This document shows positions 24,668-30,826 of a stretch of DNA of 64,000 bases, piece after piece. Positions within the stretch are counted from its first letter, which is position 1; each line of letters begins with the position of its first letter. The translations under genes and the position numbers were made by a program. The notes beneath the pieces were generated by a model that did not search any database, was not told the origin of the DNA, and worked only from the letters and a program-made list of their open reading frames with translations. The stretch is from Deltaproteobacteria bacterium (GTDB taxonomy: Bacteria > Myxococcota > UBA727 > VGSZ01): the NCBI GenBank assembly GCA_016177705.1, contig JACOUT010000005.1, positions 286,374-350,373 on the forward strand. Reading direction: 5' to 3'.

Positions 24668-25597
24668 TCACATACGGGCAGTATGCTCGCTTCGCGCCTC
24701 GCCGGCCGCCTTGCCTCGCTCGATGTTGCGATGTCCCTCAAGCGCCCGCCGCCACAGCGCCTCGGCGCGGTAGGACGAGCGCACGCGCGGACCCGCGGCG
24801 ACCGCCAGGAAGCCGAGGGTCCGCGCGTCGTCCGCGAGGGCGGCGAACTGCTCGGGATCGACGAGGCGCCGCACCGGCGCGTGCCGGCGGGTGGGGCGCA
24901 GGTACTGACCGAGCGTGAGTACGTCGACGGCGACGCCGCGCAGCTCGATCATGGCGTCGAGCACCTCGTCGTCGGACTCACCAAGGCCGAGCAGCAGGCC
25001 GGACTTGGTGACGAGCTCCGGCCGCCGTCGCTTGGCGGCGTCGAGCAGCGCGAGCGAGCGATCCGTCGAGGCGCGCCGGTCGCGCACCGACGGTGCCAGG
25101 CGCCGGACGGTTTCGAGGTTGTGCGCCAGCACGTCGACGCCCGCGTCGACCACGGTGCCGAGCGCGCGCGCATCGCCGCCGAAGTCCGGCGCCAACAGCT
25201 CGACCGTGCGCTGGTCGTCCTTGAGCGCGCGCACACAGCGGGCGAGCTGGCGCGCGCCGCCGTCGTCGAGATCGTCGCGGTCGACGCAGGTGAGCACCAC
25301 GTGGGCGAGGTCGAGCGCGCGCACGGCGTCGAGCAGGCGCGCGGGCTCGTCGGCGTGAAGCGGAGCTGGCCGACCGCTCTTGACCGCGCAGAAGCGGCAC
25401 GAGCGCGTGCAGACGTCGCCGAGCAGCAGGAAGGTGGCCATCCCGTCCGCCCAGCACTCGCCCTGGTTGGGACAGCGCGCCGCCTCGCAGATGGTGGCGA
25501 GCGCACCGAGCTGCTCGCGCACTGACGCGGTGCGCTCAGGCGCGGGTGCGGGTGCCGCCAGCCAGCGCGCGTCCGACAGCACCGGCAGCGAGGTCAC
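24668..25597 (-). CDS. lipA: Lipoyl synthase
   Basis: CEAARCPNQGECW (auxiliary cluster) and CTRSCRFCAV (radical-SAM CX3CX2C). Confidence 0.9.
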   Translation of the reverse strand: MTSLPVLSDARWLAAPAPAPERTASVREQLGALATICEAARCPNQGECWADGMATFLLLGDVCTRSCRFCAVKSGRPAPLHADEPARLLDAVRALDLAHVVLTCVDRDDLDDGGARQLARCVRALKDDQRTVELLAPDFGGDARALGTVVDAGVDVLAHNLETVRRLAPSVRDRRASTDRSLALLDAAKRRRPELVTKSGLLLGLGESDDEVLDAMIELRGVAVDVLTLGQYLRPTRRHAPVRRLVDPEQFAALADDARTLGFLAVAAGPRVRSSYRAEALWRRALEGHRNIERGKAAGEARSEHTARM

Positions 25598-25848
25598 GGT
25601 GCGAGCCGCCCGCGCAGGTAGGCGACCGCGCCGTCGAGGGTGACCAGGTGCTGTGCGTCCACTTCGGGCACGTCGACACCCAGGCGCTCCTTGAGCCCCA
25701 CCAGCACGCGCAAGAAGTCCATGCTGTCGAGGTCGAGGTGCTCGCGCACGTCGACGTCGCCTGGGATGGACGCGCCGCGGCTCTCGGGCGCGACCGCGGC
25801 GATGGCCTCGAGCAGCGCGCGCCGCAGCTCCTCGTCAGTGACGCTCAT
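25594..25848 (-). CDS. Acyl carrier protein-like (phosphopantetheine-binding) protein
   Basis: 84 aa. ...VDVREHLDLDSMDFLRVLVGL... has the DS(M/L) Ser attachment context. GGAGG is 6 nt upstream of the ATG; the ATG overlaps the E2 stop and the lipA ATG overlaps its own stop. Confidence 0.65.
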   Translation of the reverse strand: MSVTDEELRRALLEAIAAVAPESRGASIPGDVDVREHLDLDSMDFLRVLVGLKERLGVDVPEVDAQHLVTLDGAVAYLRGRLAP

Positions 25849-28050: not shown

Positions 28051-29039
28051 GCGCGCCTCCCCGGATCGCGCGGCGCGGTCACGTGGCGCGTCAGGTGCTC
28101 GGGCGGCTCGAGCGTGCCGCGCTCGGCGAACGCGACCGCGTCGTCGACCTCGCGCTGCACCGCCACTTCGGCGGCCGCGAGCGCGGCGTCGTCGAGCAGG
28201 CCGTGCGCCTTGCCCGTGTGTGCCAGCGCGGTCAGTGGATCGCGCGCGCGCCAGCGCTCGATCTCGGCTTTGTCGCGGTACCCCTGCGAGTCGAACATGG
28301 AGTGCGCGCGGAAGCGGTAGGTGCGCATCTCGAGCAAACAGGGCGCGCCTTTGCGCGCGATCTCGACGGCGCGCCGCGCCGCCGCCAGCACCGCCACCAC
28401 GTCCATGCCATCGACGCGCTCCGCGGCCATGCGGTAGCCGCGCGCCTTGGCGGCGACGTCGGTCTCGGCCTCGTCGACGTCGAGCGCCGACCCCATGGCG
28501 TACAGGTTGTTCTCGCAAACGAACACCACCGGCAACCGCCACAGCGAGGCCAGGTTGAGCGACTCGTGGAATTCGCCCTCGGCCACCGCTCCCTCACCGA
28601 AGAAGCAGACGGTCACGTTGGGGCGCGCGAGCAGCTTGTCGGCGAGCGCCAAGCCGACGGCGATGGGGATGCCGCCGCCGACGATGGCGTTGCCGCCGTA
28701 GAAGCGCCGCTTGGCGTCGAACACGTGCATCGAACCGCCCCGGCCGCCGCTCGAGCCCTCGCGCTTGCCGAACAGCTCGGCCATCACCTCGCCGGCAGGC
28801 AGGCCGCGCGCCAGCGCCTGGCCGTGCTCGCGGTAGGTGGCGACCACGGCGTCGTGGTGCGCGAGCGCGCGCAGCACGCCCACCGCCACTGCCTCCTCGC
28901 CGTCGTACAGGTGCAAGAAGCCGCGGATCTTGCCCGCGCCGTACAGCTCGACGCAGCGCTCCTCGAAGCGCCGGATCAGCAGCATCTCGCGGTACAGCTC
29001 GAGCGCCGTGGGGCCGTCGAGCGCGGGCAGCGCGGTCAC
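28047..29039 (-). CDS. 2-oxoacid dehydrogenase E1 component, alpha subunit (TPP-binding)
   Basis: TPP motif [20 protein letters not shown], ...[10 protein letters not shown]... The GTG at 29039 has GAGGGGG 8 nt upstream and overlaps the ligase stop (GTGA). Confidence 0.85.
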
Positions 29040-30826
29040 GTGGCGGCCCCCTCGAGCGTCGAGGTGTCGCCCTCGGGCAGGCCGAGCTCGCGCGCCTTGA
29101 GCAGCCGACGCATGATCTTGCCGCTCTTGGTCTTCGGCAGGTCGGCGACGAACGCGATCGTCTTGGGCGCCACCGTGGGACCGAGGCGGGTGCGCGCAAA
29201 GCCGAGCACGTCGAAGTTGAGCGCCTCGTTCGCGGTCTGTCCGGGCCTGAGCACCACGAAGGCCTTGATCAGGTTGCCGGCGACCGCATCGGGCACGCCG
29301 ATGACGCCGGCCTCGGCTACCGCCGGGTGCTCCATCAGCGCGCTCTCGACCTCGAAGGGCCCGATCAAGTGTCCCGACGATTTGATGACGTCGTCCGCGC
29401 GACCCACGAACCAGAAGTAGCCGTCGGCGTCCTTTTTGACGAGGTCGCCGGTCAGGTACCAGCCGTCGACGAAGCACTTTCTGGTGCGCTCCTCCTCCTT
29501 GACGTACTGGCGAAACATCGAGGGCCAGCCCGGCCGCAGCGCCAGCTCACCCTCGACGTCCGGCGCGCCGAGCACCGTGACGTGCTTGCCGTCCTCGCTC
29601 TTCTCGACAACGGCCGCCTCGATGCCGGGGATCGGTTTGCCCATGGAGCCGGGCTTGATGGGCAGCGCTGCGAGGTTGGCGATCATGATGCCGCCGGTCT
29701 CGGTCTGCCACCAGTTGTCGTGGAACGGCAGCCCGAGCACTTCGGCCCCCCACCACACCGCCTCGGGGTTGAGCGGCTCGCCCACGCTGCCGGCGAAGCG
29801 CAGCGACGACAGGTCGAAGCGCTTGGGTACCTCGGCGCCGGCCTTCATCAGCATGCGCACGGCCGTGGGCGCGGTGTACCAGACGCTGACCTTCTGCTCG
29901 TCGAGGATGCGGTACCAGCGCTCGGCGTCGAAGTCGGCCTCGTCGACCACGCTGGTGACGCCGCAGGTGAGCGGCGCGATGATGCCGTACGAGGTGCCGG
30001 TGACCCAGCCGGGATCGGCGGTGCACCAAAACACGTCGTCGTCGTGCAGATCGAGCACCACGCGGCCGGTGAGCTGATGCACCACCACGGCGCCGTGCAC
30101 GTGCAGCGCGCCCTTGGGCTTGCCAGTGGTGCCGCTGGTGAAGTGCATGATGCTCGGATCCTCGGGCGAGGTCGGCGGGATCTCGAAGCGGTCGCTGGCG
30201 GTGTCGAGCAGCGCGCTCCACGCGAGCGTGCTCCCATCGGCGCCGACGGCGCCCTCGCCGACCAGGATGACGTGCCGCAGCGCGGGCAGCGCAGCGCGGA
30301 TGGGCCGGACCTTCTTGTCGTAGAGCTTCGCCGTCGTCACCAGGACGCGCGCCTCGCCGATGCTCATGCGCGTGGTGATGGGCTCGGGGCCGAAGGCGGA
30401 GAAGAGCGGACAGAACACCGCCTTGGCCTTGAGCGCACCGAGCGCCGCCACGTACAGCTCGGGCTGCCGGCCGAGCAACGAGAACACGCGCTCGCCCGGC
30501 GCCACCTTGAGCGCACGGAGCGCGTTGGCGAAGCGGTTGGTGCGTCGTTGCAGCGTCGTGTAGCTCAGATCCTCCGGCGCGCCGGACTTCTTCACGAAGC
30601 GCAACGCGACCTTGTCGCCCCTGCCTGCCATCACGTGGCGATCGACCGCCTCGTGGGCGATGTTGAGGCCTCGACCGGCCGGCAGGCCGGCGAGCTGCTT
30701 GCGCGCCTGCTCCCACGAGAACGCGCCGGACTGCTCGGGCTGATAGTTGGGGGGCAGGCGCAGGCGTGCCGGATCCTTGACGATCGTCGTGGGGCGGCTC
30801 ATGGCGTGCACCAGCGCACGGTTCAT
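29036..30826 (-). CDS. Acetyl-CoA synthetase-like AMP-forming acyl-CoA ligase
   Basis: AMP-binding [24 protein letters not shown]...[31 protein letters not shown] (Acs/PrpE family). Confidence 0.8.

Follow-up and report, generated by a model that had tools for sequence, protein, structure and literature searches.

In textbooks, pyruvate dehydrogenase (PDH) complexes and acetyl-coenzyme A (acetyl-CoA) synthetases are presented as dependent on CoA. Citrate lyase and malonate decarboxylase, on the other hand, possess a private acetyl-ACP (acyl carrier protein) carrier, which is acetylated by a dedicated AMP-forming acetate:HS-ACP ligase (CitC); these carriers, CitD and MdcC, display a different fold, and bear a 2′-(5″-phosphoribosyl)-3′-dephospho-CoA prosthetic group. 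A published precedent comes from the glycolicacyl-ACP systems of quinocarcin (QncN/QncL/QncM) and scleric acid (SclQ1-4) biosynthesis, in which E1/E2-like proteins load an ACP that receives its acyl group from the lipoyl arm (PMC6335953). Herein we describe an operon from a 64 kb stretch of the genome of a Deltaproteobacteria bacterium (contig JACOUT010000005.1; hereafter the window, approximately 72 % G+C), in which an AcsA-type acetate ligase, a PDH-type dehydrogenase and a dedicated ACP are encoded together. The first five of its six genes form a cassette that is conserved across more than ten phyla, and for which we tentatively favour a role for the ACP as acetyl carrier.

The operon occupies positions 24668–30826 on the minus strand, and contains six co-directional, overlapping genes in the order ligase, E1 alpha, E1 beta, E2, ACP and LipA. 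It opens with a 596 aa acetate-activating, AMP-forming ligase of the AcsA type (29036–30826; PF00501 and PF13193; NF003313), followed by E1 alpha (28047–29039; 330 aa; PF00676; TIGR03182) and E1 beta (27073–28050; 325 aa; PF02779 and PF02780; NF006667) of a PDH-type 2-oxoacid dehydrogenase and by the E2 dihydrolipoyl acyltransferase (25845–27080; 411 aa; PF00364, PF02817 and PF00198). The dedicated ACP (25594–25848; 84 aa; PF00550) carries the sequence DLDSMDF with a predicted phosphopantetheine site at Ser42, and the final gene (24668–25597; 309 aa; TIGR00510; NF004019) encodes lipoyl synthase, LipA. Upstream of the ligase gene is a divergent intergenic region of 104 nt (30827–30930), presumed to bear the promoter, the far border of which is a divergently transcribed saccharopine-dehydrogenase-like gene (30931–31998). 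No sigma-70-like site is found in these 104 nt, and a promoter and terminator scan of 24300–31200 returned nothing useful. The gene map was drawn from the G+C content at third codon positions (GC3) and from translations. With a GC3 of 0.88–0.96 for all six open reading frames (ORFs), a shared strand and matching families, the six-gene overlapping operon proposed in a preliminary description of this DNA is borne out.

That description had also claimed five overlaps of 4 nt, and this holds for four of the junctions. Ligase and E1 alpha overlap by GTGA, with GTG as the E1 alpha start codon, and ACP and LipA do so likewise, whilst the E1 alpha/E1 beta and E2/ACP junctions are both ATGA, with a GGAGG situated 7 nt ahead of the ACP ATG. 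The exception is the E1 beta/E2 junction, where an overlap of 8 nt, GTGGCTGA, results from taking the GTG at 27080 as the E2 start; this start is backed by the N-termini of homologues, and the alternative ATG at 27059 would leave a gap of 13 nt. The reported lack of an E3 (dihydrolipoamide dehydrogenase, Lpd) in the window is upheld by two approaches: no E3 (Pyr_redox), LipB or LplA domain is present in any Pfam-scanned gene of the 64 kb, essentially all genes being covered, and a tblastn search of the window with an Lpd seed gave no match.

The carrier protein scores 26.4 bits against PF00550 (cutoff 20.8) and has 134 database relatives. Alignment of 33 diverse members of its subfamily reveals that D41, S42, M43, D44 and F45 are invariant, with further conserved blocks of IAPE and LGVDVPE-DY--L-TLDGAV-YL. 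What had been termed an ACP-like protein is thus a PF00550 member above the gathering score, with a conserved Ser within the DS motif as its predicted phosphopantetheine site. Comparison with the orthologue from locus L008 identifies 24 codon differences that are synonymous only and 12 that change the amino acid, indicating that this ORF is under purifying selection. The protein is acidic (pI approximately 4.4), and its helix II has a net charge of −1 to −3 as opposed to −8 in Escherichia coli AcpP. Against the equivalog models for AcpP of fatty acid synthase (FAS) type (TIGR00517, NF002147–NF002151) it reaches 29 bits where cutoffs lie at 66–84, and judged by these scores it is not an AcpP-type FAS carrier. 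Its nearest solved relatives in profile searches are generic bacterial and mitochondrial ACPs (E approximately 1e-12), and NCBIfam holds no dedicated model for either this ACP or the E2 of the cassette.

The preliminary description called an ACP between E2 and lipA unusual; wider comparison shows that the ACP is not peculiar to this locus. When one genome per species was scanned with a sequence pattern, at least 550 genomes, spread over more than ten phyla, proved to encode the ACP subfamily, almost always within a colinear cassette. Carriers include Alpha-, Beta-, Gamma- and Deltaproteobacteria, Acidobacteriota, Gemmatimonadota, Chloroflexota, Actinomycetota, Planctomycetota, Verrucomicrobiota and Rokubacteria, so the ACP is clearly conserved and present in homologous operons. 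A tblastn survey with the six window proteins, in which locus ORFs were delimited from the hits and most loci derive from metagenome-assembled genomes, recovered the order ligase–E1 alpha–E1 beta–E2–ACP in approximately 70 of 80 genome-scan loci, and independently collected contexts agree. Across these loci identity to the window proteins is 59–68 % for the ligase, 56–70 % for E1, 38–53 % for E2 and 43–63 % for the ACP. Taken over Proteobacteria, Acidobacteriota, Actinomycetota, Chloroflexota, Gemmatimonadota, Planctomycetota and Verrucomicrobiota, ligase and E1 together span 57–70 %, and E2 and ACP 38–63 %. An overlap of exactly 4 nt between the E2 stop codon and the ACP start codon recurs in 71 of 83 loci from different phyla, and mirror-tree analysis indicates that the five cassette proteins co-evolve as a block (r = 0.57–0.72).

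The cassette is also present on 15 plasmids of cultured bacteria, belonging to Methylocystis rosea, Rhodococcus, Cupriavidus, Burkholderia, Paraburkholderia, Ralstonia, Sinorhizobium fredii, Azospirillum and Tropicibacter. It is thus best explained as a self-contained and horizontally mobile accessory module. On these plasmids the NCBI annotation pipeline PGAP names its products acsA, pdhA, E1 beta, 'dihydrolipoamide acetyltransferase family protein' and 'acyl carrier protein'. Full-text literature searches found no published description of this gene arrangement, which apparently is unstudied so far; these genes are also not contained in the paper on the lxa locus.

With regard to the dehydrogenase, which the preliminary description had assigned only to the 2-oxoacid family, both E1 subunits are of PDH type above curated cutoffs: E1 alpha scores 423 bits against TIGR03182 (cutoff 393.85), with human PDH E1 alpha as its best solved relative (E = 1.6e-67), and E1 beta scores 373 bits against NF006667 (cutoff 321). 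E2 can be placed at the Pfam level only. It possesses a lipoyl domain (PF00364), a peripheral-subunit-binding/E3-binding domain (PF02817) and a catalytic domain (PF00198), with the lipoyl Lys in ETDKG and the catalytic motif DHRTSDG. Its best score against a PDH E2 equivalog is 195 bits where TIGR01349 demands 445 (TIGR01348 and NF008814 are likewise below cutoff), and for this reason we call it divergent. These features recur in the family: the approximately 30 cassette E2 N-termini examined carry the lipoyl Lys ([E/D]T[Q/E/D]KG), and 76 of 85 cassette E2s have DHRxxDG; conservation of E2 within the family is 42–50 %. In its E1 scores, three-domain E2, lipoyl Lys and DHRxxDG motif the cassette therefore resembles the canonical alpha/beta PDH complex (mitochondrial, alphaproteobacterial, and Gram-positive pdhABCD). 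It differs from a canonical PDH operon in that E3 is missing (except at L018, see below), that E2 falls far below every E2 equivalog cutoff, that translation of E2 is coupled to that of an ACP, and that an acetate ligase leads the operon.

The ligase scores 884.4 bits against the acetate–CoA ligase model NF003313 (cutoff 729), and its best solved relative is 9g79, a 572 aa acetyl-CoA synthetase (AcsA) of approximately 55 % identity (E = 1e-156). As in Bacillus subtilis-type AcsA, both the acetate pocket and the catalytic Lys are retained: equivalents of Salmonella enterica V310, T311, V386 and W414, and of its Lys609, are aligned and conserved, and the pocket motif DNWWQTETG is found in 69 of 74 cassette ligases. 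Given this pocket, the enzyme is expected to activate acetate, or at most propionate, but not octanoate, and is, by its predicted pocket, unable to make octanoyl-ACP. Two features set the cassette ligases apart from AcsA and from SaAcs1, besides their being encoded together with E1/E2 and an ACP. Firstly, the equivalent of Arg526 is Leu in the window enzyme (SGHLIG) and in 65 of 70 cassette ligases, whilst the same position is Arg in three solved Acs proteins (SGHRLG or SGERVG). This thioester-forming motif belongs to the mobile C-terminal domain, and the substitution suggests an altered thioester half-reaction in cassette ligases. Secondly, the loop corresponding to the CoA-nucleotide-binding loop, for the role of which we rely on previous work on Acs (PMC13404658), is conserved, basic (LY-R/K-R/K-K-x4-R) and three residues longer than in B. 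subtilis AcsA.

In the reading that we tentatively favour, the ACP would be the acetyl carrier of the module, accepting acetyl groups from E2 and working in partnership with the ligase. The PDH-type E1 would decarboxylate pyruvate and acetylate the lipoyl arm of the module's own E2. From E2 the acetyl group would move on to the ACP translated together with it, the protein-bound phosphopantetheine thiol of which would take the place of CoA. The AcsA-type ligase would interconvert acetyl-S-ACP and acetate with ATP/AMP + PPi, either loading the ACP from acetate or, in the reverse direction, releasing acetate and regaining ATP. E3 and a phosphopantetheinyl transferase would be borrowed from the housekeeping set, and LipA, where present, would act as a helper that keeps the additional E2 lipoylated. 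We infer the use of ACP as acceptor by E2 and/or the ligase, as well as the direction of flux, from gene arrangement and motifs. Delivery of the acyl product to ACP instead of CoA had been one of two options in the preliminary description, and it is the one that now leads, given the E2/ACP overlaps and the Qnc/Scl precedent. In concept, such a module would be akin to citrate lyase and malonate decarboxylase, having a private thiol carrier with its own ligase. It would differ from them in that its carrier is a PF00550 phosphopantetheine ACP rather than a CitD- or MdcC-like protein, and in that the partner of this carrier is a lipoyl-dependent dehydrogenase.

A small number of variant loci place the ACP with enzymes of short acyl thioesters. 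In L011, on a Dechloromonas chromosome, a ligase–ACP–GNAT acetyltransferase arrangement (8238–10778, plus strand) occurs without E1 or E2, and Pat-like GNAT genes are located 3′ of the ACP in L063, L066, L077 and L086 as well. L063, from a metagenome-assembled genome of Burkholderiales, harbours a 667 aa CoA-transferase (7709–9712, plus strand) ahead of the ACP (10001–10234), and this protein also matches the malonate decarboxylase alpha (acyl-ACP transferase) family, a further parallel to the carriers named above. A H+-translocating pyrophosphatase (11916–14063, minus strand) is encoded downstream, and neither E1/E2 nor a ligase lies within 10 kb of the ACP. In L062 (Chloroflexota) the ACP adjoins genes for BON and universal stress protein (USP) domains.

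Several observations weigh against the ACP as acetyl carrier. The ligase-ACP-only and CoA-transferase-ACP layouts are single loci from metagenome-assembled genomes, and the mirror-tree partial correlations are similar for ACP with E2 (0.23) and ACP with the ligase (0.21), singling out neither as its partner. The conserved basic loop of the ligase fits CoA or an acidic ACP alike, and the identity to AcsA, taken with a score beyond the acetate–CoA ligase cutoff, may mean that CoA is the acceptor of this enzyme. The reading, moreover, offers no reason for a cell to prefer an ACP over free CoA.

The main alternative, which is possible if somewhat unlikely, is an ordinary accessory supply of acetyl-CoA in which PDH and AcsA use free CoA, and the ACP either serves lipid, triacylglycerol or polyhydroxyalkanoate synthesis elsewhere or is a regulatory or structural subunit. 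The resemblance of the ligase to a solved AcsA and the passing of curated acetate–CoA ligase and PDH E1 cutoffs by ligase, E1 alpha and E1 beta are as this explanation would have it, and Aas-like fusions of PP-binding, AMP-binding and PlsC acyltransferase domains recur near the cassette, with a PlsC-like acyltransferase also located 3 kb away in the window. It leaves unexplained, however, both the near-universal 4 nt overlap of E2 and ACP and the family-wide Arg-to-Leu change of the ligase. Furthermore, no acyl-ACP consumer is conserved with the cassette, and the carrier does not score as an AcpP-type FAS protein.

Clustering of approximately 590 flanking ORFs from 70 loci identified no universally linked gene, and only stress-type families recur. 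The cassette must therefore work with housekeeping partners only. Several of these families are otherwise rare. Counting families within 10 kb of the cassette in 88 loci, PolX is the most frequent (13 loci), followed by RtcB, often with archease (12 loci), erythromycin-esterase/phosphoribosyltransferase (PRTase) proteins and GroEL (10 loci each), Hsp20 and P-type ATPases (nine each), nicotinate phosphoribosyltransferase and phosphoenolpyruvate (PEP) synthase (eight each), and USP (at least eight). At least one of 14 families, comprising those just named (less the PRTase-only seed) together with BON, archease, Lon, FtsH and CbpA, is present in 52 of the 88 loci; BON, Lon, FtsH, CbpA/M, alanine dehydrogenase and malic enzyme are also seen near the cassette.

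In 26 proteobacterial loci the 350 nt ahead of the ligase gene contain a box with the pattern TTGA-N6-TCAA (FNR/FixK/CRP type), where approximately 1.3 would be expected from the remainder of the same loci, an enrichment of approximately 20-fold covering Alpha-, Beta- and Gammaproteobacteria. The stricter pattern TTGAT-N4-ATCAA is enriched 11-fold. The boxes are situated 50–300 nt upstream, many of them near −135 to −155 from the start of the tblastn ligase match, which is close to the start codon. Loci with such a box include L013, L016, L021, L023, L024, L053, L055, L065, L076, L080 and L090–L092; several are mutually related, so that independent events number fewer than 26, although three classes are spanned. 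Neither the intergenic region of the window nor those of its delta/Myxococcota-like relatives contain a TTGA-N6-TCAA box, and control by low oxygen is consequently proposed for proteobacterial carriers only.

The neighbours of the cassette also resemble the mycobacterial DosR regulon (RtcB, Rv2030c-like proteins, PncB2, CtpF, HspX and USPs), to which Rv1734c belongs. A scan of eight actinobacterial loci for DosR-type boxes, both upstream of the ligase and elsewhere, found none, and DosR control of the cassette is thus not claimed. Rv1734c of Mycobacterium tuberculosis is reported to be a fragment resembling the E2 catalytic domain (PMC8562490). That this fragment may have been left over from the cassette is offered only as a lead. 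Some genomes contain a separate E1 alpha/beta–E2 set, only 30–37 % identical, within 10 kb of the cassette. In L021 (13989–18258) and L048 (12427–17135) such a second set is of x-type (TIGR03181). It adjoins alanine dehydrogenase in L048, and a glutamate-dehydrogenase-like gene and aspartate 4-decarboxylase in L021. Being x-type and located beside such genes, these sets are not called housekeeping PDH, and both islands look to be centred on pyruvate and alanine metabolism.

Extending the acetyl-carrier reading, the cassette could constitute a CoA-independent, ATP-yielding route from pyruvate to acetate, a proposal we consider attractive but rather unlikely. The ligase would run in reverse, converting acetyl-S-ACP + AMP + PPi to acetate + ATP + holo-ACP, and an AMP-forming Acs that operates toward acetate and ATP is known in SaAcs1 of Syntrophus aciditrophicus (PMC4992975, PMC13404658). 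The appeal of such a serial, self-contained pathway stems from the lack of a conserved acetyl-ACP consumer and from the movement of the cassette between phyla and plasmids. The FNR/FixK boxes of proteobacterial loci fit this route, as do neighbouring USP, Hsp20, RtcB, PolX, PEP synthase, alanine dehydrogenase, malic enzyme and NAD-salvage genes.

Lower still in probability is the notion that the cassette is a C2 supplier of the QncN/L/M kind, in which E1 and E2 would charge an ACP with an acetyl or glycolyl unit, to serve an assembly line or lipid pathway as starter or extender. The parts lists are equal, each comprising an E1-like thiamine diphosphate enzyme, an E2-like protein with lipoyl and acyltransferase domains, and a small stand-alone ACP (PMC6335953). 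The Qnc and Scl systems, however, derive their C2 unit from ketose phosphates and feed a non-ribosomal peptide synthetase (NRPS) inside a biosynthetic gene cluster, whilst the cassette E1 alpha scores above the equivalog cutoff for PDH, with human PDH E1 alpha as its closest solved structure. They also do not contain the Acs-type ligase that is integral to the cassette. The window contains neither NRPS nor polyketide synthase domains, and such domains are not recurrent in the flanks of the 80 loci either. The spread over more than ten phyla further separates the cassette from both pathways, and both the stress genes beside it and its FNR-type boxes suggest a place in energy or stress metabolism.

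The lipA gene of the window deserves separate consideration, as the preliminary description proposed, as its other option, that the ACP carries octanoate and, together with LipA, lipoylates the cassette E2 de novo. LipA scores 319.6 bits against TIGR00510 (cutoff 310.25) and 338 bits against NF004019, and its translation contains the CX4CX5C motif of the auxiliary cluster, the radical-SAM motif CX3CX2C and a C-terminal RSSY, which read CEAARCPNQGEC, CTRSCRFC and RSSY. The gene follows the ACP directly, with a GTGA overlap, and mitochondrial ACPs, which are octanoyl donors for lipoylation, feature amongst the nearest solved relatives of the carrier. Nevertheless, lipA is located directly 3′ of the ACP only in the window and in L008, L093, L094 and L095, all syntenic with the window over more than 15 kb, and this synteny within a shallow clade indicates a single evolutionary event. 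Conservation of the E2–ACP–lipA triad is hence confined to the window's own relatives: the conserved unit is ligase–E1 alpha–E1 beta–E2–ACP, with lipA as a local, clade-specific add-on. The octanoate proposal, which we regard as very improbable, fails because the ACP is conserved without lipA in approximately 70 of 80 loci, because no octanoyltransferase is linked (lipB and lplA of the BPL_LplA_LipB family, and LipB/LipM more generally, are neither in the window nor recurrent in the flanks of the 80 loci), and because the co-conserved ligase has an acetate-sized pocket; nor are FAS II genes linked to the cassette, or the carrier of AcpP type.

A comparable addition is seen in L018 from a metagenome-assembled genome of Dehalococcoidia, where the gene immediately after the ACP (7177–8487, plus strand) is E3-like, with 33 % identity to E. 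coli Lpd; this is the only one of approximately 90 loci with such a gene beside the cassette. We read both lipA and the E3 of L018 as lineage-specific helpers on a cassette for which the host normally provides E3, lipoylation and phosphopantetheinylation.

It is equally improbable that the operon, its lipoyl synthase included, encodes a dehydrogenase for acetoin or another acyloin. In favour of this, the preliminary description names acoS (a lipA) from the aco operons of Pelobacter, and an Acs would suit acetoin catabolism via acetaldehyde and acetate, to which acu/acs are linked in B. subtilis. In the window, however, lipA is a recent clade addition, and E1 alpha scores above the equivalog cutoff for PDH. 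The AcoC model NF011457 aligns with the lipoyl end of E2 alone (74.8 bits versus 307), AcoL, AcoR and aldehyde dehydrogenase were not found in the window, and the ACP, present here along with an Acs, would be left unexplained.

Beyond the operon, the window is ordinary chromosome of Myxococcota-like character, with MreB, Ser/Thr kinases, a haem biosynthesis cluster and secreted repeat proteins. Downstream of lipA by 2.3 kb, and on the opposite strand, a PlsC-like acyltransferase gene (itself approximately 3.2 kb away) and a NAD-dependent epimerase/reductase-like gene overlap by 4 nt (20638–22358, plus strand); this pair is 91–92 % identical to its L008 orthologues, as compared to 69–80 % for surrounding genes. 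A run at 9458–17677 (plus strand) contains two MacB/FtsX-type permeases, a LolA-like protein, a 490 aa ORF with no Pfam match, an ABC ATPase and a DUF3160 protein, and looks like a lipoprotein or export system. On the other side of the operon, two translationally coupled ORFs of 1196 and 931 aa (36484–42866, plus strand; approximately 77 % G+C) are without Pfam matches and are preceded by a 628 aa protein with a weak invasin-like match. An ARPP-1 domain protein (43615–44577, plus strand; PF20208, 218 bits), from a little-studied family, is encoded between a Pfam-less 211 aa ORF and a Laminin_G_3 protein. The haem cluster (46298–55325) comprises hemB, hemD, hemE, a hemA-like gene, hemC, hemL and hemH, and is interrupted by a histidine kinase/OmpR-type response regulator pair (52507–54214).

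The known element of this system is thus its PDH-type complex, and the new one is the dedicated ACP and Acs that accompany it, with the appended lipA of the window best seen as a local helper and not as the key to the system. Standard annotation conceals the cassette behind the labels acsA, pdhA, 'dihydrolipoamide acetyltransferase family' and 'acyl carrier protein'. Should the reading of the ACP as acetyl carrier be true, a PDH and an Acs hard-wired to a dedicated ACP would represent a new branch of central acetyl metabolism, found in more than ten phyla and on plasmids of cultured rhizobia, Burkholderiaceae, Rhodococcus and methanotrophs, beside genes of stress, hypoxia and dormancy. With the ACP as acetyl acceptor, E1/E2-to-ACP chemistry from two natural-product pathways would extend into primary or stress metabolism, and it is in the replacement of CoA by ACP that the wider interest would lie. 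Were the ATP-yielding route also true, the cassette would be a portable module of substrate-level phosphorylation for aerobes under oxygen limitation or dormancy, showing how strict aerobes could gain ATP from pyruvate once respiration fails.

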